A stretch of DNA of 39,568 nt, taken from a virus. The notes beneath the pieces are model-generated. The model worked only from the letters and a program-made list of their open reading frames with translations. It was not told the DNA's origin and did not search any database. The stretch covers positions 1 through 39,568 of IMG/VR virus record IMGVR_UViG_3300045988_025144. The stretch is one strand, 5' to 3'. Each line of letters opens with the position of its first letter. Position 1 is the stretch's first letter. This document shows, piece after piece, positions 3,001 through 19,350 of the stretch. The position numbers were made by a program, and so were the translations under genes.

Positions 3001-4192
3001 CACCATTCCAAAAGTACAGTTGTTTTTTATCCCCGACGGTCAAAAATAAACGATCGCCCTTCCTCAACGTCCCTTTTGGCACATCTAAAGGCTTCACATC
3101 TCCAAAGTAGTTCGTGTTTTTTCCATCTGCAGACACTAAAGCTCTTGTGGCCGTTTTTAAGGCACGTTCGCTTCCTTCTATTGAATCAGTTAGCGTACGT
3201 GATAAATGACTAATTTCACTTGTTGCACGCTGAACCGTTCCAATATCATTACAGACAACCTTTCGACTAATTAGTTTACCACCTACATCATATTCACTAG
3301 TAAACGATACAATACGGACTTTTTGACGAAATCCCAAGGTTTCGTTAATGGCCATAATATAGTCGCCCGGATTCGGACGGCTGATCCGATAGCCAGCTTG
3401 TGATAAGTCTTCCATATCGATTTCAACAGAAACCTTGTACGACTTATCAACATTTTCTTTCAGTCTTCCTAATAGTTTTCCTGTATCTTTGTAGCGCTCA
3501 TCTACAACAGGGTCTGCTTCAATTCGTCCATAAATTACAGATAGTGGGCTCTCGTATGATGTTTCATAACGACCTTTTGAGTGATCCTCATCGTCTTTCC
3601 AAGCACCGATGCCACGCTGGTAGGTTACAAAGCTGTTGATATTTTTTTCTATTTTCAGCTCGTTCATATTAAAGTCTTTACGAACGATTGTTGATAGATC
3701 TGTTCCGATTCGTTTTAAGATTCGGACCACATGACCACGTACAGAAAATTCAAGTCCAGCAACCTTTATAATATCGTTGAAAAGCGAGAGTCGAGACTTA
3801 TTTCCGAAATTTTCTTTTCGAATAGACCCGACCGTCGTTTCCAGATTGTAAGTATAGCCACTGCCTGAAAAGATCGCTTGTAGATATGTTTCAAACGGCT
3901 TTGAGCCATTCAAAGTAGTGTAGACCATTGATTTTGACATGTCGTAGAAGAATTGGTGCACCGCATCAAATTCAACCTCAATCTGTCGTCCTGTGTCGTT
4001 AGGTTTTGCGTAAGTAATACGATAATATTCATCGTCTAAGCGAAAACGCCAGCCTCGACCTATACCGTGCAAGACTTTGTCGTTGGTATAGATTGTGCCT
4101 TTTACAGAAAGTTCACCGTTGACCGCATTAGTTACAGAGTAAGCAACTAGAGCACTATGCTCTGTACCTTTTTCATCGACAAATGTAATCAA
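26..4192 (-). CDS. Tail-associated protein / receptor-binding tail fibre (Tal-like; N-terminal prophage-tail endopeptidase-type domain, C-terminal S74 intramolecular chaperone domain)
   Basis: A 1388-aa ORF lies directly downstream of Dit. It has a TTG start 5 nt after GGAGGTG. The C-terminus (SDRRYKHNIEDS...GIMAQDVQK...ALVPYLIKAIQEL) has the endosialidase-chaperone (Peptidase_S74) pattern. The central part contains coiled-coil and beta-sandwich-like segments. Confidence 0.85.
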   Translation of the reverse strand: MITFVDEKGTEHSALVAYSVTNAVNGELSVKGTIYTNDKVLHGIGRGWRFRLDDEYYRITYAKPNDTGRQIEVEFDAVHQFFYDMSKSMVYTTLNGSKPFETYLQAIFSGSGYTYNLETTVGSIRKENFGNKSRLSLFNDIIKVAGLEFSVRGHVVRILKRIGTDLSTIVRKDFNMNELKIEKNINSFVTYQRGIGAWKDDEDHSKGRYETSYESPLSVIYGRIEADPVVDERYKDTGKLLGRLKENVDKSYKVSVEIDMEDLSQAGYRISRPNPGDYIMAINETLGFRQKVRIVSFTSEYDVGGKLISRKVVCNDIGTVQRATSEISHLSRTLTDSIEGSERALKTATRALVSADGKNTNYFGDVKPLDVPKGTLRKGDRLFLTVGDKKQLYFWNGAEWELEPTEFDHEKFDMEFNRKSQEIKKTIQENRQKAEEALRNASSSSLIAQEAKRIGLDSIARLEAFKSQSTSAQTALSGDLDVLKRTVTSEVKQASEYRRTTTEALSRMTGQMNGFATKSEVKQGIDGLTQTFAKMKVGGRNYAEDYDFSRGLWQYSQGDSSPQDWTILNGEYNVKGTTNTWKQMQIHSKEGSQASGKNSAALLELEIGETYTLSFQGICYSGSSNVWISLRANRTAPGNPEIMNGNFTLTSSWQTYQVTIQALTKPDNFDFWRIILGYNEIGHVAFRKVELTRSSTRIDAGPAPEDGKTDLVVAKSEFQKTADGLSAKLSAVESYVGQDGQRQEALRKYTRDESARQVSAVREQISRDYVGKSAYQEDVRGLERRFSAISTQTNNDIASKIAQYKQTVDGQFASITSQIAGKANQTDFQRVQETSRLYERILGNTNNSISDNVARMAMTSQLFQVEVGKYGSDGINRALNTSKGWTSFITIASPAGINLNADLHKVVASGLVAGDKLHVCLEISIDDVQPITGKTATAVLQSWGDVKKWNSGNPFGYRLGNLIAGNNWRKIEYDVTLTEQMLGNNFWWLNVRVDGASRYKVHTKLLKIEKGSRATPWSPAPEDSDEAIRTVQSQLAGSWAVQNLTSAGSIVSQINATNNQILIEAEKIRLKGKTLLDELTAIQGYFKRLFVGDASVGTLNSDIIRSNSITADKLVMDIAMARRFVSSDIFTDTLVAKEAFINKLRSVVVTATLLEGYKGRIGGFQIGTHEKDSSVYWITGQNQFSVGMSNGTGQWSQTALWVNWGNNWGYPGDYAWYVKNNGKMYCYNTAEFWNTPVIHGNLRVTGHIYYNNENSGKSGHWIHSSKYSNFEPSNNYLYLYYSGSGYDWIPMNKEISDRRYKHNIEDSTVSGLDVIQKLKTYSYRKEYDGKIEDIACGIMAQDVQKYAPEAFFENPDGAYSYNTFALVPYLIKAIQELNHKIEKLEKTA

Positions 4193-12276: not shown

Positions 12277-13167
12277 TTATCCTCCAGGTACTGCTGCAGG
12301 AGCCACTTTTTCGATAGTAGTTTCTACGACACCTTGAGGGATTTCCGCAAACAGCACGTTAGCACCGAAGAATACAGATTCGTAAGTGAGGTTTTTCAAT
12401 GCACGGTCACGCGCAACAGCAATCAAACCAGTTTCATCTGTAAAATCCGCAAACAATCCGCCGAGGTCCCCAGAAGCTACATTCAAGTTAGCAAACACAA
12501 GGTTTTCAATTGCTGTCGTATAGATTTTACCTTCTGGTACACCGTTCATCACGATGACGTTTTGCATACCCAAGAAATTCTTGAGCAAAGTCATACCGAA
12601 GACGTTCGAAGCGTCAGCACCTACACCAGCGTTTCCAAGGTATTCAGCAGCATCGACTGGATTCACAAAAGTAACGATTGGAGATCCTTCAAATTCGTTG
12701 AAAGTTGCGATTTTTGCCCATGCTTGAGCAAGCGCACCTTGCAAGCCTTTCCCCTTGTTCTTTGTCGGGTCAGCTTTCAAGAATGTGAAGAATTGTTCTT
12801 TGATTCCATTTTGGATTTCACGCATCAAACGTGTATCAGCTTCCGTGATAGCGATGGATGCCCCATGACGCGCAATTGCTTCAGCAGAGACAGAACGACG
12901 TTTCTTGAACCACGCCACTTCGTGCGCTTGATCTTTAGTGCGAACCATTTGAGAAAGCGGAATGTCTTCCCCTTCGCCCGGATTTGTTGCGTCCACATCA
13001 GCAGTCCATTTGTAAGTTTGGATTTTCAGGTCGCTTGTCAATTCTTGTCGACGGCTAACACCCAAGAGAGTCAGCAGATCGTTGATATTTTTGGAAAACT
13101 TGTTGACAAAATCAATAGACTTGATTTCGCCCAAGTTAGCCATAGTAGTTAGTTTTTGTTCAGCCAT
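12277..13167 (-). CDS. Major capsid protein
   Basis: A 296-aa ORF directly after the scaffold gene. Its strong codon bias leaves the antisense frame open over almost the whole gene. Confidence 0.85.
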   Translation of the reverse strand: MAEQKLTTMANLGEIKSIDFVNKFSKNINDLLTLLGVSRRQELTSDLKIQTYKWTADVDATNPGEGEDIPLSQMVRTKDQAHEVAWFKKRRSVSAEAIARHGASIAITEADTRLMREIQNGIKEQFFTFLKADPTKNKGKGLQGALAQAWAKIATFNEFEGSPIVTFVNPVDAAEYLGNAGVGADASNVFGMTLLKNFLGMQNVIVMNGVPEGKIYTTAIENLVFANLNVASGDLGGLFADFTDETGLIAVARDRALKNLTYESVFFGANVLFAEIPQGVVETTIEKVAPAAVPGG

Positions 13168-13170
13168 ATT

Positions 13171-13767
13171 CTAGCCCTTTCTAAAAAGATTGATATTTTC
13201 AGCAATCATAGCCTGACGCTTGTCAGTATCTTCAATTGCCATAATTTGTTCTTTCGTGATTCCTGTTGTAGTACCACGACGTGGCGCGCTTTGAACCAGT
13301 CGTTCGTTTACGCGTTTTTCAACTTCGCTATCAAATACATTGCGCAAAGCCGTAATTTTAGCCTTAACTTCTTCAGCAGTCGGAGCAAGCACATGATCCA
13401 AAAATTCTTGTGGCAAACCTTCATCTACTAAGAGCGATTGTGTCGCTAGTTTCATCTCACGTTCAGCTATATCCTGCTCACGCTTCTCCAAATCAGCGAT
13501 TCGTTTCGCTTCTTCTTCTTTAGCGCGCTCGTCTTTTGTCAGCTTGGCTAGTCGTTCACCCTCGCTTTTAGCTTGTTCAAGAGCTGCTGCTTGTTCAGCT
13601 TCCCATTTTGAGCGTTCAGCAGCTAACATTTTCCCGATTTCTGAACGAGTAAAAGTACGTTCGTGCTTTTCGCTATCTGCATTTGATTCTGTTTCTACTT
13701 TCTCGCTCTGAGTGTCGACATTCTCAGTTGATTCAGTTGAGACAGTTCCGTTGATTTCTTCTGACAT
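13171..13767 (-). CDS. Scaffolding protein
   Basis: A 198-aa E/K/A-rich coiled-coil ORF directly upstream of the capsid gene. Confidence 0.8.
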   Translation of the reverse strand: MSEEINGTVSTESTENVDTQSEKVETESNADSEKHERTFTRSEIGKMLAAERSKWEAEQAAALEQAKSEGERLAKLTKDERAKEEEAKRIADLEKREQDIAEREMKLATQSLLVDEGLPQEFLDHVLAPTAEEVKAKITALRNVFDSEVEKRVNERLVQSAPRRGTTTGITKEQIMAIEDTDKRQAMIAENINLFRKG

Positions 13768-13863
13768 AATTGTCCTCCAGCGATTACGTCGCCACTCGAT
13801 AATCTCGTTTTACGTCCGGCGACGAAACAATACAGCTTTTAACGTCTTCAGCAAAGTTTGGAC

Positions 13864-13895
13864 AATAGAAAAACCGTACGGGATTCCATACGGTT
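13864..13895 (-). terminator. Intrinsic terminator closing the small accessory cassette
   Basis: On the minus strand, the 9-bp stem ACCGTATGG-AATC-CCGTACGGT is followed by TTTTTCT. Confidence 0.7.
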
Positions 13896-13900
13896 AATTT

Positions 13901-14113
13901 CTATAGTTTAATTTCTTCAATTTTTGCACGTTGTTCTAAAATTTTTAAATAATTCCACATGGCCGAACGCTGACCTTTTAACAAATCAATAGGACATTTC
14001 GGTTCAAACTCTAATTGTCCTTTTTCGTATTTGTCAATCATCATATCTAACTTTTGAAATCGTTCTCTCAATTCGTGGTATTCTTTTCTAAATCTCTCTT
14101 TCCAATCTTCCAT
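13901..14113 (-). CDS. Small helical protein of unknown function, paralogous to the N-terminal half of 21381-21824
   Basis: The start was chosen at MEDWKERF, which is preceded by GAAAGGAA. It shares ME..K.R...EY..L.ER....CP..LL..Q..AM..YLKILE.RAK with the 147-aa protein. Confidence 0.7.
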   Translation of the reverse strand: MEDWKERFRKEYHELRERFQKLDMMIDKYEKGQLEFEPKCPIDLLKGQRSAMWNYLKILEQRAKIEEIKL

Positions 14114-14163
14114 TTTTCGTTCCTTTCTTCGATTCAGTAATTTATAGCAGTCTATTCTGCAAG

Positions 14164-14301
14164 TCAAGATTCTGGATCACCTTCTTTCATTGATTTTCTG
14201 ATTCCATCAATCATCCCACTGATAATTGAATAACCTACAACTAATAAAACGAGCAGGACGATAGCGCCTGCTGTAACGAATACTAAATTCCAGATAAACA
14301 T
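14164..14301 (-). CDS. 45-aa single-pass hydrophobic peptide (MFIWNLVFVTAGAIVLLVLLVVGYSIISGMIDGIRKSMKEGDPES)
   Basis: A hand-translated ORF below the 60-aa cutoff of the ORF track. It has an ATG start preceded by the purine-rich AGAAAGAAG, one clear TM helix and a charged tail. Confidence 0.5.
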   Translation of the reverse strand: MFIWNLVFVTAGAIVLLVLLVVGYSIISGMIDGIRKSMKEGDPES

Positions 14302-14320
14302 TTTATCTTCTTTCTGGAAA

Positions 14321-14352
14321 ACAAAAAAGCGCCTAGATTACTATCTAAGCGC
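14321..14352 (-). terminator. Intrinsic terminator at the end of the structured leader
   Basis: On the minus strand, GCGCUUAGA-UAGUAA-UCUAGGCGC (9 bp including one G-U pair) is followed by UUUUUUGUUUU. Confidence 0.8.
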
Positions 14353-14445
14353 AAGATAGGCGGGACCGCCGAATGTCGCCCGCATTTCTCGACCCACTAG
14401 CTAAGTGGCGCGTTGGAGGCGGATACTTTTCAACCTCTATCTTTA
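14353..14445 (-). promoter_or_regulatory. GC-rich structured RNA leader (riboswitch- or attenuator-like, unclassified)
   Basis: A closing helix pairs AAGAUAG(A)G at 14443-14435 with CCUAUCUU at 14360-14353. Inside it are a CCACU/AGUGG hairpin and the competing GC helices CCGCC/GGCGG and GCGGG/CCCGC. Confidence 0.45.
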
Positions 14446-14450
14446 CCCTA

Positions 14451-14479
14451 AGTATATCACATATCATCTTTAGAGTAAA
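14451..14479 (-). promoter_or_regulatory. Sigma-70-type promoter embedded in the 3' end of the MuF gene
   Basis: TTTACT-17 nt-TATACT with a TG extension. The MuF TGA stop codon forms the TGA of the extended -10. Confidence 0.5.
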
Positions 14480-15860
14480 GTATCTTTTTCTCACGTTTCA
14501 ATTTATTTAATTTTTGTTTTTTAATTTTGTGATAGTGGATGATGTAGTTGCCATCATCCTTTTGTATAAGAGCCGCTTCCATTAGATATTTCAAGCGTTC
14601 TGGGACTTTTTTATAAAGCAATACCGAATTCTTATGATGGCCAGAATTATCTGCGACATAATCCGGATCAGCAACTAATTCTTGCAACAATAACATTTGT
14701 TCCAACGGGAATTCTGTACCATGTTTTTCTAAGATTTTTGCCAAATTCTTACCAGTCACTTGTACACGTTTTAGTAACTCTTCGGTCCCCTTCACACTTG
14801 GCAACTGTCCAATTGTATAGCTTTCTGCAAGACTTCGTTCAATACTCTTGTAAGGTTGGCTTCTTTTTGATATATCATCCCACAAATTAGCAAGATCATC
14901 TCTTAACTTCTCAAAGTCATGATCATGAGCCTTGGTAACACCGTTCAATTCTTCCTCGTCTGGCATCACACCAGACCTACAATTAAAATGAAAGGGCGGA
15001 GCATTTACTCCTGCCTGCATTTCGTCAATCAAATATCGCTTATTTTCCGCATGGATTCTTTTACAGATTTCAGTCGTTCGATTATCCAGGTGAACCAGTA
15101 TACGATAGTATTTCAGCCCTGCATCCTTGTAACGTTGGATAGCGGAACGATTGACAATCATCGTTCCGTCCGTCCGAATGAGTGTTTCAGCTCGGCTGTT
15201 GGCTACTTTATACTTCTGCGCCAAATCACGCGCCATTGTTCGCGGATGATCTCCTCGTACAAATCCAGCCTTCAGAATCTTTTTTAAATCTTTGACAAGA
15301 TTGTCTGTATTCCCCCACAATTGCTGACTGTAGTTATAGCCGTTAAACGGCGTTTTCACTAACTCTTTTAATGCCGGTTCGTTAATTGTACCCGTCCGAC
15401 CGCTCATAGCTTTTTTATAGCCCATAAAAGCCATTTTCTGCAAATAACTTTCAAACTTATCAGCAATAAGATCTCTTGCGACACCTGCACGAAAAAGCAT
15501 ATCCAGCTGCAATGACTCTAATCTTGTAGCGCGTGCAGTCGTGTACTGCTCGTTGAGCCTTTTAAGCAACTCTGGGTCTTTCTCGGCCTGCTCACGATAC
15601 TTCCTAGCGTTCTCCCGATAATCTGACAGGTCGATGCCTTTCAGTCGCTGTAGCGCTTCCTGATAGCTCATTGAGCCACTCTCAGAATACTTGTTAACAA
15701 AATCATAAAATGCTTTTTGCATTTCGTTAGCTTGTTCTTGATAGACCTTATTTAATTCGGCAAAAAAATCAATATCTTTTTGGTCTAGATAGCGAAAAAT
15801 TTCATCTGAGCGCCCTGACCAGTAATCAAGATGGTTTTGATTCGGTTTCTTGCTCATCAT
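14457..15860 (-). CDS. Head morphogenesis protein (SPP1 gp7 / Mu F family) with a 167-aa C-terminal extension
   Basis: The MuF hallmark LDNRTTEICKR...APPFHFNCRS is present, and the gene follows the portal gene. The start is probably the MMSKK ATG after GAGGTGG. Confidence 0.85.
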   Translation of the reverse strand: MMSKKPNQNHLDYWSGRSDEIFRYLDQKDIDFFAELNKVYQEQANEMQKAFYDFVNKYSESGSMSYQEALQRLKGIDLSDYRENARKYREQAEKDPELLKRLNEQYTTARATRLESLQLDMLFRAGVARDLIADKFESYLQKMAFMGYKKAMSGRTGTINEPALKELVKTPFNGYNYSQQLWGNTDNLVKDLKKILKAGFVRGDHPRTMARDLAQKYKVANSRAETLIRTDGTMIVNRSAIQRYKDAGLKYYRILVHLDNRTTEICKRIHAENKRYLIDEMQAGVNAPPFHFNCRSGVMPDEEELNGVTKAHDHDFEKLRDDLANLWDDISKRSQPYKSIERSLAESYTIGQLPSVKGTEELLKRVQVTGKNLAKILEKHGTEFPLEQMLLLQELVADPDYVADNSGHHKNSVLLYKKVPERLKYLMEAALIQKDDGNYIIHYHKIKKQKLNKLKREKKILYSKDDM

Positions 15861-17355
15861 TGACCACCTCATCTACTGGATCTAGCCGTGGTTCAGGCTG
15901 TTCTAGGACTTCTTGCTCTTTCAAACGTTCCAGCTCATCTGCAGCGTCTACTCCCGTAACTTGATTCAGCAATTCGAAAATCGTCTGATCGCTGACGATT
16001 CCATACAATGACTTAATCATCTCAACAATTTCTTTTTCGTTTTGCGGAACGTTTGGACTAAAGACTACTGAAGTTTCATTGATGAGTTCGTAGGCTGTAT
16101 TTTCATTACCTTGGATTGACCAGATGTTAACCGCTAAACGCAAACGACGCATAAGACCTGCTTCAAACAAGTCTTCTTGTTGTTCTCGATAATTATCACT
16201 GGCCATAAGCTTGTACTTCATCGATTCGCCAGATTGCGTGCCAGCGAAGTTGTTATCAAGCGTGTCTGGCGTAAATGTGAAGCGTAAGATATCATTTACA
16301 AGGCGCTTCTTGTATGCTTCTGCTCCGTCACTATCGTACTGCTTAATCAAATAGCTAGCATCCGGATTCGCTCCGCCCGGATTCGGGTTATCGTCCAAGA
16401 TGAGAACCTGCGCCTTTTTGTAAGCCTGCGACACATACAGCCGACCGTTTGGGTTGATTCGTCCGTCTTCCAAAAAGTCATTTTCCTCTGCTCCCGTGTA
16501 CGGATTCCCTTTGATCATCAAGATAGCATCGTTGCTATTTTGCTGAAAATTAGCAAGCTCAGATTGTGATAAATCATAAGCATCGATGTTGTCTAAAACC
16601 GACTCATAAGAACCTAAACGGTCCTCGTTGTTGCTGTACTCATTTACTGGTACGGCCTTAAAATAGTGCTCTTGCTCGTCCTTGAGCGCCATTTTATCGC
16701 TATCTGTAGATTTCCACTCGTAGCTATAGATATGATCTGCAGTATAGACTTTTATAATCGTCTTACGCTTGCTATCTCCATAGTCAATATCGTAGTAGTT
16801 CACGGCCATGAGCGAGTTTTGCTCGTATGTATCATCATAGATAACAAAAGTCTCTTCTGGTTTTAACTTGTACAACTTGACCCAAGCCTTGCCACCTCGA
16901 TTCGTTACAGTCAAAAGTTCATAAGCACGGCCATACACACACAAATCTTTTTTGATGGAAGAGTTGTGCTTCTTTTCGTTGTTTTTAGCAGAGAAGTCTT
17001 TGATATTGTCAAGTATTGTTTCGTCTTCGTTTTTATACTCGACCGGATTCCCCAGCATGTACCCCTGTTCAAAAATAGTAATATATTTAGCAAAGTCGCT
17101 AGAAATGCGATTGTCTGCCGCAGTTTCGTCTGTTTTAGCAGGTCGATACTTGATATTGTTATCGCCTTTATAGTACCGCTTTAACTCTTTCAAACGAGGT
17201 TGTTGTTCTGCTTTGTGACGATTCACGTAACGTTTTAGCTGTTCAATCCAATTATCAGAACCGTATTCGATGGCTTCGAAGTCTTCTGTCATCATCATGA
17301 AATGCTCGTTTGACTTGCTGTCAAAACGCGTGCCGTTTAAGAATTTAACTTCCAA
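15826..17355 (-). CDS. Portal protein (SPP1 gp6-like)
   Basis: A 509-aa ORF between the terL and MuF genes, with a TTG start 5 nt after GGAGG. Confidence 0.85.
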   Translation of the reverse strand: MEVKFLNGTRFDSKSNEHFMMMTEDFEAIEYGSDNWIEQLKRYVNRHKAEQQPRLKELKRYYKGDNNIKYRPAKTDETAADNRISSDFAKYITIFEQGYMLGNPVEYKNEDETILDNIKDFSAKNNEKKHNSSIKKDLCVYGRAYELLTVTNRGGKAWVKLYKLKPEETFVIYDDTYEQNSLMAVNYYDIDYGDSKRKTIIKVYTADHIYSYEWKSTDSDKMALKDEQEHYFKAVPVNEYSNNEDRLGSYESVLDNIDAYDLSQSELANFQQNSNDAILMIKGNPYTGAEENDFLEDGRINPNGRLYVSQAYKKAQVLILDDNPNPGGANPDASYLIKQYDSDGAEAYKKRLVNDILRFTFTPDTLDNNFAGTQSGESMKYKLMASDNYREQQEDLFEAGLMRRLRLAVNIWSIQGNENTAYELINETSVVFSPNVPQNEKEIVEMIKSLYGIVSDQTIFELLNQVTGVDAADELERLKEQEVLEQPEPRLDPVDEVVNDEQETESKPS

Positions 17356-17357
17356 TT

Positions 17358-18638
17358 TTACCTCCTAAAATAATAAGACGCATTCTTCATGCGGTCTTGT
17401 GTTGAACGGCTTTGTAAAATCCTATCTTGCAAAGCGTATCTAATCGCATCGATGCAGTGATTGTAGCTATCTACTGGGTCGTTGATATACTCATTTGTCT
17501 TCTTGTCCTTCTTCCAAGTGTAATTTTCCAGTTCTTCAATCAACTTCACACATCGTTCATCTACTATCCAATCGTATTGCAAGAGATACTGGATCCCTTG
17601 CATGACTGATCCAGGACCTTTCTGCACATCAATAACCCGAGGGATGCCAAGATTTCGCAATTCCTGATTCGATTTCTTTTCAGCACTGTCTGCTTTGATT
17701 TGCTCTTTAGCATACCCAAGGGCCTTGATACTTTCAGCAATTTTGTCATTGGTTAATCCCTTTCTTACAAACTCCTCAACAACGTATAGTCGCTTGTTAG
17801 CATCGTCTATTCTTACATGAAGCAAAGCTGACGGGTCGTTGATAAAACCGTAGTCAAGACCAAAATAAGCCGGCAGATGCGCCAGCTCGTCTTTATTAAG
17901 TAATCGTTTCTCGTATTTCGGAAAGACTAACTTGTCCAGAGTTGCGAACTCGCCCAGAGCGTAAATCTTGTAGTACGCTTCGTTTCTGTTGGCCAGTTCC
18001 TCGATATTTTCAATTGTTACCTGGTCTAAAAAACGATTATCCTTGTAGGACGTATGATAAACAATCGTATTTTTTGGTTTCTTAACAAAAAAAGCGTTGT
18101 AGGTCCAGTTGACTTTCGAAACTGGGTTAAACATCAAGAAGATCTGCTTCTGCTTGTGCTTCTTATCCCGTAAACGCAAAGTCAACTGTGTGTAGTCATC
18201 AAGCGTAAACTCAGAGGCCTCTTCCATAACCACATCAGACACACCCTTAATTGACTTGATTTTCTCAGGGTTATCCAGCCCTTTGAAAATAAACTGTGCT
18301 CCGTTTGGTAGCTCAATCCGATAAGCTGAATTGTTGACCTTACACTTATCGAGCAACTGCCAGCTATCCAAACATTGCTTCACATCCTCAAAGATTGAGT
18401 CGTGAACCGTAGCGCCTACCTTACGCAAGAATAAAACCTTACGTGGATGCTTCCAATCTTGACATGCTTTGAATACAACTTTTTGAATTACACCGTGACT
18501 CTTACCGCTTGAAGCCCCACCATAGTGAACTTCTGTAAAGTTTGAGTAATCTGTTAACTTGTCGTAGATATGCTTGTTAAATACTCGGCTAGGATATTGA
18601 ATGACAATATTGATTTTAGGTCTAGTCTTCGTCAACAT
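17358..18638 (-). CDS. terL: Terminase large subunit (PBSX / Terminase_3-like)
   Basis: It has the Walker A-like YGGASSGKS motif and overlaps the end of terS. The ATG at 18638 follows AGGTAGGTG, and a GTG at 18647 is an alternative start. Confidence 0.9.
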   Translation of the reverse strand: MLTKTRPKINIVIQYPSRVFNKHIYDKLTDYSNFTEVHYGGASSGKSHGVIQKVVFKACQDWKHPRKVLFLRKVGATVHDSIFEDVKQCLDSWQLLDKCKVNNSAYRIELPNGAQFIFKGLDNPEKIKSIKGVSDVVMEEASEFTLDDYTQLTLRLRDKKHKQKQIFLMFNPVSKVNWTYNAFFVKKPKNTIVYHTSYKDNRFLDQVTIENIEELANRNEAYYKIYALGEFATLDKLVFPKYEKRLLNKDELAHLPAYFGLDYGFINDPSALLHVRIDDANKRLYVVEEFVRKGLTNDKIAESIKALGYAKEQIKADSAEKKSNQELRNLGIPRVIDVQKGPGSVMQGIQYLLQYDWIVDERCVKLIEELENYTWKKDKKTNEYINDPVDSYNHCIDAIRYALQDRILQSRSTQDRMKNASYYFRR

Positions 18639-19056
18639 CCCAATCACCTACCTTGATTTCGATAGTTCGTTGAGTGATTTCTTGTTTGTCGGTCCAAAGC
18701 CTGTGACGTTTTCCTAAAAGCTCAGCTGCCTTGATTCTATCTTTCGCCCCGACATCTATATCCGTAATCGTCTGACCTAGCTCTCCAATACTAATCAAGG
18801 TCTGTTCTTGCGTCTCTCCTCGCATGACTGAAGTTAGGTAAGTAAGCACCTCTTCCTGTGTTGCAATCTTCTCAGACGCAAGCTGAGCCAATCTTTCATC
18901 GATATAAGATTTGATTGTAGTATTTTGTAGTAACTTAGAAGCATTCGTATTAGCATACTTAGAACTATACCCTGCCTTAATTGCTGCATCTGTCGCATTC
19001 CCGCTGATGATGTACTCATCAGCAAATCTCTGTTGTTTTAAAGTTAATTTAGCGAT
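18622..19056 (-). CDS. terS: Terminase small subunit (P27 / Terminase_4-like) with a non-canonical start
   Basis: The open frame from 19062 reads (W)K-I-AKLTLKQQRFADEYIISGNATDAAIKAGYS...AAELLGKRH. The only start-like codon at the expected N-terminus is ATC at 19056-19054, 9 nt after GGAGG. Confidence 0.75.
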   Translation of the reverse strand: MAKLTLKQQRFADEYIISGNATDAAIKAGYSSKYANTNASKLLQNTTIKSYIDERLAQLASEKIATQEEVLTYLTSVMRGETQEQTLISIGELGQTITDIDVGAKDRIKAAELLGKRHRLWTDKQEITQRTIEIKVGDWDVDED

Positions 19057-19108: not shown

Positions 19109-19126
19109 TTAATGCAAGACCTCTCA

Positions 19127-19197
19127 CAGACTTTGTAGGAATCGAACCCACGTTTACAGATTTGGAGTCTGTCGTGTTACCACTACACTAAAAATCT
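19127..19197 (-). tRNA. tRNA-Trp (anticodon CCA), 71 nt, CCA end not encoded
   Basis: It was folded by hand as AGAUUUU-UA-GUGU-AGUGGUA-ACAC-G-ACAGA-CUCCAAA-UCUGU-AAAC-GUGGG-UUCGAUU-CCUAC-AAAGUCU-G. All four stems pair. U8, GG in the D loop, U33, the TPsiC loop UUCGAUU, A1-U72 and G73 are present. Confidence 0.85.
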
Positions 19198-19350
19198 AAA
19201 TAACGGTATCAGGGGTTGAACTAAATAATACAAAGAGGAAATCACCAGCTTACCACCCCTGACACGGTTAAACATTAAAGGAGTCACCAAGTACTTGCCT
19301 TACTCGTTGACAATACCATAATATCACTTTAAAAATTCCAAAGAGTTCCA

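Follow-up and report, generated by a model that had tools for sequence, protein, structure and literature searches.

The skipping-rope RNA was described by Weinberg et al. (2017; PMC5737381), who gave 3' terminators as a feature of the family, listed it among the few small bacterial RNAs whose complexity hints at a 'sophisticated biochemical function' and reported that no self-cleavage was found. Searches of the literature on skipping-rope, PBECR and DUF3800 yielded no functional study of this RNA. PBECR domains are predicted metal-independent RNases that occur as fusions with MuF, portal and polyvalent proteins and probably enter the host together with the phage DNA (Iyer et al. 2017; PMC5512222), and MuF toxins are generally followed by small open reading frames (ORFs) for putative immunity proteins (Jamet et al. 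2017; PMC5576092). The Apk2 MuF toxin of a Streptococcus pneumoniae prophage has both hydrolase and binding immunity proteins (PMC12226406). Our analysis concerned a viral stretch of 39,568 nucleotides (nt), IMG/VR record IMGVR_UViG_3300045988_025144 (positions 1 to 39,568, hereafter the window), and within it the block of 13864-14479 that lies between the MuF gene and the scaffold gene on the minus strand. This block contains a skipping-rope RNA directly behind a MuF gene whose C-terminal extension is a predicted RNase domain of the PBECR2 type, and the genomic linkage of this RNA to PBECR2 was found to be tight and oriented. An association of the RNA with a protein had already been reported in 2017; the pairing with PBECR2, always upstream and on the same strand, is identified here.

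Identification and fold of the RNA

Rfam cmscan of the whole window returned two matches above the gathering score, tRNA-Trp and the skipping-rope RNA RF02924, the latter with 48.9 bits against a gathering score of 36.7, over model positions 1-80 of 80 and with an E-value of 8.5e-9 for the whole window. The same RNA scored 48.4 bits with the covariance model built here (R1), the E-values of which are rough. The structured stretch is a member of this known Rfam family and shows all of its testable defining features, and the confident match removes the novelty that an earlier reading of the sequence (the initial annotation) had seen in a supposed leader at this place. The elements of the RNA are as follows.

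14352-14444, minus strand: skipping-rope RNA (RF02924), a four-helix junction with a loop-loop pseudoknot, found as an Rfam covariance-model match
14437-14444 with 14352-14359, minus strand: helix P1
14431-14434 with 14412-14415, minus strand: helix P2 (GUUG/CAAC)
14405-14408 with 14394-14397, minus strand: helix P3 (CCAC/GUGG), with an outer pair C14410-G14388
14379-14383 with 14360-14364, minus strand: helix P4 (GCGGG/CCCGC)
14418-14422 with 14366-14370, minus strand: pseudoknot (CCGCC/GGCGG) between the P2 loop and the P4 loop

Much of this architecture had been anticipated in the initial annotation. The GC-rich stretch it described has its maximum GC content of 0.567 at 14340-14429, between flanks of 0.26-0.39, and the CCAC/GUGG hairpin and the GCGGG/CCCGC and CCGCC/GGCGG helices can all be read where it had placed them. 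Its closing helix is present as P1, without the bulged-A extension, which is not a pairing of the family because G14434 opens P2; P2 itself was missing from an otherwise real list of helices. The choice it left between a pseudoknot and alternative folds falls to the pseudoknot, by covariation outside the nested model. The RNA together with its terminator folded with z = -2.0 relative to shuffled sequences.

Covariation was assessed in about 90 distinct relatives, drawn from the protein-first sample described below and from an RNA pattern scan of viral contigs (the RNA-first sample), which gave 120 loci, comprising 96 true RNAs (48 distinct sequences) and 24 GC-rich false positives. RNAalifold analysis of 36 diverse sequences showed compensating changes in 7 of the 8 pairs of P1, and P2 and P4 showed such changes wherever their pairs vary. 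Among 53 distinct sequences, 93.7% of cells were paired in the structure including the pseudoknot, in comparison to 78.9% in shuffles, and 21 of 29 pairs were changed on both sides, values that none of 500 shuffles reached; this alignment was fitted to the nested helices of the model, so that its counts lean towards those helices, and the pseudoknot lies outside the model. Sliding the partners by 1-3 columns lowered pairing in the same alignment to 31-45%, and P3 was the weakest helix (77.7% paired). Compensating changes in relatives, which the initial annotation had named as a check on its helices, are thus present, and P1, P2, P4 and the CCGCC/GGCGG loop-loop pseudoknot are backed by covariation.

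The longest loop-loop helix occupies the same place in every subtype with unrelated sequences, more than eight of which have been kept complementary; these include CCGCC/GGCGG, CUGUC/GACAG, CGUUGC/GCGACG, UGUGCU/GGCACA, CGCCCCG/UGGGGCG and CGUCCA/UGGACG. The junction nucleotides are highly conserved (GAGG, ACGC, GARAUGC and CCNGCC), the P3 loop varies from 3 to 7 nt across relatives and an extra hairpin occurs in some of them. The streptococcal subtype is distinguished by longer P2 and P4 loops and a GC pseudoknot of 5 base pairs (bp).

Linkage of the RNA to PBECR2

The protein upstream of the RNA in the window is described by two features.

14457-15872, minus strand: MuF gene (head morphogenesis or minor head protein), 471 amino acids (aa), with an N-terminal Phage_Mu_F domain and a C-terminal extension
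14460-14921, minus strand: divergent PBECR2-like domain, the C-terminal 154 aa of MuF, a predicted metal-independent RNase

Searches of GenBank phages with the domain (tblastn) gave 20 records, and searches with the RNA (blastn) gave the same 20 records plus one satellite. Streptococcal loci examined with the covariance model and hidden Markov models all possessed MuF, and the RNA was found in 8 of 8 loci with the domain and in 0 of 7 without it; all seven of these RNA-less sister phages share the flanking genes of the locus but not the domain. Phages V22, IPP10, Spn1, 34117 and Javan326 were RNA-negative with the covariance model, and no skipping-rope RNA was present in K13 and Javan377 by an Rfam search and by our own model with filters off (best score 8.1 bits). 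The MuF proteins of the window and of phage 2167 are only 25% identical overall, yet the domain and the RNA are common to both.

Sampling in either direction gave the same picture. From the RNA side, a PBECR-like ORF was found in 59 of the 96 true loci, in comparison to none of the 24 false-positive loci; it was always the nearest upstream ORF and in the orientation of the RNA, which its stop codon preceded by 11-190 nt. From the protein side, 80 viral loci were picked by PBECR2 homology alone (43-100% identity to the query), and 79 of them carry the RNA on the same strand; in 78 the RNA is full-length and starts approximately 30-50 nt past the stop codon, and the other two of the 80 are one locus with a copy cut by a contig end and one with a breakpoint right after the -10 box. 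A comparison of L177 (1880-1935) with L165 showed identity through the PBECR2 stop codon and as far as the -10 box, followed by full divergence, which points to a recombination or assembly breakpoint exactly where the RNA unit begins. The RNA also follows PBECR2 ORFs of about 140 aa that stand alone, no terminator was found between the PBECR2 gene and the RNA, and no protein-coding neighbour tracked the PBECR2 domain in the loci compared. An ORF of the MKYRKKPVV type, which lies 3' of the RNA in phage IC1 and in L165, was considered as a third component and rejected, as it occurred in only 11 of 215 loci, PBECR-less ones included.

The N-terminal part of the window MuF matched Pfam Phage_Mu_F (E 5.5e-13, aa 196-302) and the whole protein phrog_115, minor head protein (E 1.4e-91). 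An exhaustive representative search assigned 32 representative clusters to the family of its C-terminal extension, with the match at or near the protein C-terminus in most; a narrower homologue search with the domain gave 4 close matches only, and a 6-sequence domain alignment led to three genome loci, all three RNA-positive. His67, Glu115 and His129 are invariant in the family. Pfam PBECR3 was matched by 14 of 21 family relatives and PBECR2 by 10 of 21, and the RNA-adjoining relatives in other, non-streptococcal phages matched PBECR2 at 34-54 bits, above the gathering score. Profile comparison with hhalign aligned the window family with bona fide PBECR2 at a probability of 97% (E 9e-11, 119 columns), with the histidine of the KHG motif set against that of the RHP motif. 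The AlphaFold2 model of the domain, with a predicted local distance difference test score (pLDDT) of 96.5, comprises a helix followed by a sheet of four to five strands. On these sequence profiles, the MuF C-terminal extension is assigned to PBECR2 as a divergent member, with RNase activity predicted.

Transcription signals of the RNA

Signals for independent transcription surround the RNA on both sides.

14474-14479, minus strand: -35-like hexamer TTTACT, within the conserved ...ILY codons at the MuF C-terminus
14451-14459, minus strand: extended -10 element TGaTATACT, its TG supplied by the MuF TGA stop codon, 6 nt before the first base of P1
14323-14352, minus strand: intrinsic terminator abutting P1, with a 10-bp stem (14352-14329), a loop of 4 and U6

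A promoter scan recovered TTTACT and TATACT with a 17-nt spacer (9 of 12 matches, TG present), the promoter proposed in the initial annotation, and promoter-like sites in the region numbered 6 in comparison to 4.4 expected from shuffles, so that the bare consensus match does not exceed chance. The -35 region ATACTTTAC is identical in the Streptococcus gallolyticus phage Javan235; this conservation is uninterpretable because the hexamer sits within the conserved MuF ILY codons. The -10 element recurs as TGnTATACT or TATAAT right after the MuF stop codon, and its distance from P1 is constant among the window, the 2167, IC1 and phiARI types of pneumococcal phage and Javan235; the satellite phage JavanS114 has the same spacing. 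Terminator-like sites in the region numbered 5 by scan in comparison to 1.7 expected, and both terminators of the initial annotation were among those found.

Across relatives, a -10 box within 18 nt of P1 was present in 46 of 75 distinct contexts, and a terminator within 70 nt downstream of the RNA likewise in 46 of 75; control positions in the same loci gave approximately 5% for either signal, an enrichment of about 12-fold for each. These conserved motifs suggest that the RNA is a self-contained small-RNA gene that is transcribed independently, with a predicted product of about 120 nt starting near 14445 and ending near 14323. The independent unit envisaged in the initial annotation is therefore retained for the RNA, which has its own -10 box and terminator, and not for the two ORFs that follow it.

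Orphan and tandem copies

Copies of the RNA were also found outside MuF loci. Satellite phage JavanS114 (L007, 4001-4092) carries a copy 96.7% identical to that of the window, with TGATATAAT and its own terminator and with no MuF nearby; this copy is short of 2 nt in the GGCGG pseudoknot strand. Satellite-like elements without MuF or PBECR (JavanS114, L048, L101 and L105) harbour orphan copies that have a TGnTATAAT promoter and a terminator of their own. The RNA of the 2167 type has been kept in L027 (oriented 588-2553) and L049, though the MuF C-terminus there is replaced by an unrelated domain, and in both an ORF of 81-89 aa (…KIDKQIITM.KIEDG…KFSYGFG) lies between the altered MuF and the RNA. 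A homologue of this ORF stands upstream of orphan RNAs in satellite-like loci (L101, 733-975), as if ORF and RNA move jointly. In L053, the ORF upstream of the RNA was considered as ToxN/AbiQ-like and dropped, as it had no Pfam match.

A further subtype, typified by L058, has P1 AUCGUCGG and begins 5 nt after a 174-aa ORF without a Pfam match (for example L058, 6790-6874); its loci include L059, L061, L068, L071, L089, L091, L095, L117 and L123.

Two to three diverged tandem RNA copies were found downstream of PBECR2 in 14 protein-first loci. Behind a single PBECR2 gene each copy belongs to another subtype with a different P1 and pseudoknot sequence, as in L131 (1962-2153) and L139 (1932-2242), and further tandem arrangements occur in L143, L160, L172, L173, L178, L138 and L190.

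Proposed role of the RNA

Sister phages K13, V22 and IPP10 have another MuF C-terminus, and the slot that the RNA takes in the window holds small protein genes in them, including one for an HD hydrolase, an arrangement in line with that of Apk2; we infer that these loci are Apk2 modules. Given its linkage, the RNA is probably a partner of the PBECR2 enzyme and not a switch for the small genes behind it. It occupies the slot in which MuF toxins have their putative immunity ORFs, and a reading in which it binds and inhibits the PBECR2 domain is therefore favoured. We suggest, with a confidence that falls a little short of even, that the RNA binds and restrains the virion-delivered PBECR2 nuclease and so may serve as an RNA immunity factor. 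Of the three roles offered in the initial annotation only that of an immunity module for the MuF extension survives, and the candidate is now the RNA itself and not the ORFs.

Under this proposal, transcription would run from the extended -10 element overlapping the MuF stop codon (about 14445) to the abutting terminator (about 14323), and the RNA would also be carried by late read-through from MuF. The product would fold as a compact four-helix junction locked by the loop-loop pseudoknot and act as a dedicated partner of the PBECR2-type domain on the MuF C-terminus. MuF, which is head-internal, is thought to be ejected into the next host; the RNA would keep the nuclease domain inactive in the virion-producing cell and in lysogens, like the small immunity proteins of other MuF toxins, and the free nuclease would act only once delivered into a cell devoid of the RNA. 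Orphan and tandem copies could then be extra immunity genes, orphan immunity genes being known to occur. In a more particular form of the proposal, put forward with greater hesitation, the RNA would be a tRNA-shaped pseudo-substrate that blocks injected PBECR2 in producers and lysogens, and would thereby be the RNA immunity arm of a polymorphic-toxin system.

Several observations weigh against the proposed role, the first group of which concerns the protein. The window domain scored 23.0 bits against Pfam PBECR2 (PF18810) in isolation (E 1e-4) and 20.6 bits in the full protein, below the gathering score of 27.1, and it has His where the PBECR2 family has Ser/Thr positions. Foldseek against the PDB returned nothing at E <= 0.001 for the domain and no significant nuclease match, the best relevant match being the toxin-antitoxin (TA) toxin 7vd7_A (template modelling score TMt 0.53, E 0.36, not significant), and the fold assignment therefore rests on sequence profiles; phmmer against PDB sequences gave no significant match for the domain either. 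The RNase activity of PBECR2 is itself a prediction (PMC5512222).

The second group concerns the linkage. In 37 of the 96 RNA-first loci there is no detectable PBECR neighbour, some of these loci being cut by contig ends. The RNA stands behind a MuF or Phage_min_cap2 gene with another C-terminus in L081, L035, L023 and L027, and in L104 (1-882) behind a protein ending in a Gln_amidase domain (a papain-fold glutamine deamidase toxin) together with a 66-aa ORF; the RNA can thus stand behind a different toxin type. The largest exception group is that of the L058-type RNA, found in 11 loci in a tail-like gene region with no PBECR ORF within approximately 5 kb, and unrelated contexts also include L072, L130 (after a sigma-factor-like ORF) and satellites. 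The protein-first query was seeded from RNA-adjoining PBECR2 sequences, so that the near-universal linkage is shown for that subfamily and not for the PBECR families as a whole. Nor do the loci represent independent lineages, and because adjacent genes are co-inherited, their co-occurrence is by itself no proof of function.

The third group concerns the RNA. Its pseudoknot sequence varies freely inside one PBECR2 clade (at least 70% identity), and the pseudoknot is for this reason taken as structural, with no sign of cognate RNA/protein specificity. The terminator behind the RNA lies upstream of the scaffold and capsid genes, which would need late read-through, and the proposed role leaves this unaccounted for.

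Alternative explanations

The main competing explanation, which we consider unlikely, holds that the RNA works together with PBECR2 instead of inhibiting it, whether as a processed substrate, as a cofactor or scaffold in a ribonucleoprotein, or as cargo packaged with MuF. The linkage data apply to it equally, MuF-type proteins are head-internal with PBECR fusions predicted to be injected, the conserved junction nucleotides would suit a specific protein-binding surface, and an inactive PBECR domain in Mu gpF has been proposed to bind RNA (PMC5512222). Against such a partner, the RNA has no variable single-stranded guide segment, since P1 and the pseudoknot vary only by compensating changes, and its orphan copies in satellites and unrelated contexts are explained more easily as protective elements.

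It is less probable that the RNA is a trans-acting small RNA unrelated to PBECR2, such as one that sponges a protein or regulates genes of the host or the phage, borne on a mobile cassette that hitch-hikes with the 3' end of MuF. This would account for the roughly one third of RNA loci without a detectable PBECR neighbour, including the 11 tail-module loci and the satellites, for the persistence of the 2167-type RNA in L027 and L049 despite a replaced MuF C-terminus, and for a unit with its own promoter and terminator. Hitch-hiking is hard to reconcile with the linkage in 79 of 80 protein-first loci at constant order, strand and spacing, which extends to stand-alone PBECR2 ORFs and to MuF proteins of 25% identity, and with the absence of the RNA from 7 of 7 domain-less sister phages that share the flanking genes.

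Slightly more doubtful still is a cis-acting 3' element of the MuF/PBECR2 transcript that would protect the 3' end of the messenger RNA, insulate it or provide a processing site. Such an element would sit as the RNA does next to PBECR2, always on the 3' side of the gene and in its orientation, without an intervening terminator and with a terminator at its own end. It would not need the -10 box that recurs across lineages in a position to start transcription at P1, and it fits poorly with orphan copies that have their own promoters far from any such gene, with diverged tandem copies and with a pseudoknotted junction whose conserved core is much more elaborate than a stabiliser requires.

The linkage to a PBECR2 domain directly upstream makes the function of the skipping-rope RNA directly testable. 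Neutralisation of the nuclease by the RNA would provide MuF toxins with an RNA-based immunity mechanism, would account for the lack of any immunity protein found for this common MuF C-terminus, and would make the RNA a new natural inhibitor of an RNase. The RNA family itself was already known; what may be new here is its explicit pairing with PBECR2, together with the hypothesis of immunity.

Downstream genes and genomic setting

The remaining features of the block and of the surrounding head module are the following.

14164-14301, minus strand: 45-aa single-pass membrane peptide (MFIWNLV...), phrog_5469 (E 2.5e-7)
13901-14113, minus strand: 70-aa protein, Pfam crAss001_48 (PF21825, E 4.1e-22), phrog_774
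13864-13895, minus strand: second intrinsic terminator, 3' of the 70-aa gene (scan: stem 13895-13872, 10 pairs, T-rich tail)
13171-13767, minus strand: scaffold gene (DUF4355)
12277-13167, minus strand: major capsid gene
15826-17355, minus strand: portal gene
17358-18647, minus strand: large terminase gene

Both small ORFs of the initial annotation exist. Intact ORFs homologous to the 45-aa peptide were found in 28 loci at 37-91% identity, and the peptide is a real, conserved gene; single-pass membrane peptides of 35-48 aa (MFIW[ND]LV...) form a conserved family that occupies the interval from MuF to the scaffold gene in many streptococcal phages with any MuF type. This peptide family is often unannotated; examples are L003 2399-2518, L004 2362-2508 and L006 at about 3626-3735. 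The region was matched by 106 Streptococcus phage records, mostly via the 70-aa gene and the start of the scaffold gene (query positions 432-791 cover the 70-aa gene), and the RNA was matched as well in only 19 of these 106.

K13 and Javan377 lack the RNA, yet both have the 70-aa gene together with a 45-aa peptide homologue (the L003 and L004 ORFs above). The two genes take the same position in further RNA-less phages, V22 and IPP10 among them. Conversely, other ORFs lie 3' of the RNA in IC1, Javan235 has the RNA, the peptide and then a tRNA without the 70-aa gene, and in satellites and non-streptococcal phages the RNA is present with neither ORF. The gene downstream of the RNA thus differs among relatives, being the peptide, other ORFs, a tRNA or none. 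The RNA is not the leader of the 45-aa and 70-aa genes, because both occur without the RNA and the RNA occurs without them; the two are ordinary conserved head-module genes outside the RNA unit and not the moron that had been suggested. For annotation, the intergenic block in streptococcal prophages is a small-RNA gene, and the two ORFs after it are ordinary head-module genes.

A three-way competition among leader, alternative helix and terminator had also been read from the window, where CUAUCU (14359-14354) is indeed complementary to AGAUAG (14346-14341) in the 5' arm of the terminator. Complementarity of at least 6 nt between the P1 3' strand and the terminator 5' arm was found in 3 of 57 distinct combinations, with means at shuffle level (terminator sequences of the window-type rows were read directly). 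In the close relatives L116, L039, L043 and L074, AGAUAG is replaced by AGAUAA, AGAUUA, AGAUGA or AGAGUU with the terminator stem kept by compensating changes. A riboswitch or attenuator leader governing read-through into the 45-aa and 70-aa genes, or a moron or type-I-toxin-like unit with a structured 5' untranslated region, would fit the order of RNA, terminator and two ORFs in the window, the CUAUCU/AGAUAG pairing and the small hydrophobic peptide, and is nevertheless largely refuted and hardly credible, given that the alternative helix is not conserved, that the downstream gene varies, that the RNA shares the strand of the peptide gene rather than being antisense to it, and that Weinberg et al. 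judged four terminator-linked motifs improbable riboswitches owing to their rarity in 5' untranslated regions and found no self-cleavage of skipping-rope (PMC5737381).

The window represents a siphophage or prophage of streptococcal (mitis-group-like) type that carries its late genes on the minus strand. The nearest genome loci are prophages of S. infantis, S. oralis and S. panodentis, and none of the GenBank phages was close to the window across the head module. Between the second terminator and the scaffold ribosome-binding site lies a GC-rich stem of 7 bp (CGUCGCC ... GGCGACG) that encloses a loop of approximately 24 nt (13787-13824, minus strand), in a region that is 84-92% conserved among pneumococcal phages. 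A tRNA-Trp gene (anticodon CCA) is located upstream of the terminase genes on the minus strand (Rfam 19127-19197, 68.7 bits; ARAGORN 19126-19198), and a tRNA-like gene is present in Javan235 too, directly 3' of its small peptide gene (L006, 3776-3862); the adjoining of phage tRNAs and a predicted RNase module may or may not be coincidence.

Comparison with known systems

With RF02924 the window RNA shares the same four helices, junction nucleotides, 3' terminator and phage/Firmicutes setting, and no structural difference was seen. Riboswitches and attenuators resemble it in placing a structured RNA directly before an intrinsic terminator, and differ in that this RNA is not consistently a 5' untranslated region, has no conserved anti-terminator and is followed by varying genes. 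The type I toxin comparison of the initial annotation, a toxic peptide with a structured 5' untranslated region, fails since a type I toxin gene would be paired with an overlapping or complementary antisense RNA, whereas the RNA here shares the strand of the peptide gene, stops 21 nt short of the peptide start and does not co-occur with the peptide across phages.

In our reading, the geometry of the RNA is that of a tRNA in several respects, with a four-way junction (linkers of 2, 1, 4 and 0 nt; helices of 8, 5, 5 and 5 bp; about 80 nt in total) and a contact between the loops of arms 2 and 4 that corresponds in position to that of D-loop and T-loop. tRNA is the target of several BECR nucleases, and such a geometry would suit, speculatively, a decoy for a tRNA-cutting BECR nuclease. 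Unlike tRNA, the RNA has no T-loop or anticodon-loop signature and its P3 loop is not conserved. The tRNA model RF00005 gave no match at E <= 10 on 14345-14450 or 13800-14560, ARAGORN called only the tRNA-Trp in the window, and homology to tRNA was rejected at the level of covariance models.

Among MuF polymorphic toxins (PMC5576092; Apk2, PMC12226406) the likeness lies in a MuF N-terminus joined to a swappable C-terminal effector in temperate streptococcal phages, and relatives of the window MuF have other C-termini or none. Unlike in these toxin-immunity modules, the slot downstream of the putative toxin domain holds an RNA gene and not a small immunity ORF.

The DUF3800-I to -XI and drum motifs (Weinberg et al. 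2017) are likewise complex RNAs with terminators that are tied to one nearby protein domain and do not form a 5' untranslated region. DUF3800 is a putative nuclease of RNase H2-like type (PMC7736814). The RNA structures and protein domains differ from those reported here; Weinberg et al. noted a 'possible relationship' between the gene sets (PMC5737381).

The type III TA systems (ToxIN, CptIN and TenpIN) share with this locus a predicted endoribonuclease that adjoins a small pseudoknotted RNA, a terminator that shapes the transcript and a link to phage-related conflict. The type III antitoxin is a short direct-repeat array upstream of the toxin, with a terminator between the two, and is cut into units by the toxin. 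The window RNA, by contrast, is a single unit of about 90 nt (2-3 diverged units elsewhere), placed downstream and equipped with a promoter of its own; the protein beside it is a virion protein with a fused BECR-type domain and not a ToxN/AbiQ fold. The skipping-rope RNA would work most like a type III antitoxin, the closest known case in which an RNase protein is neutralised by an RNA. It is placed outside the type III class because it forms no repeat array, follows the protein gene and is preceded by its own promoter.

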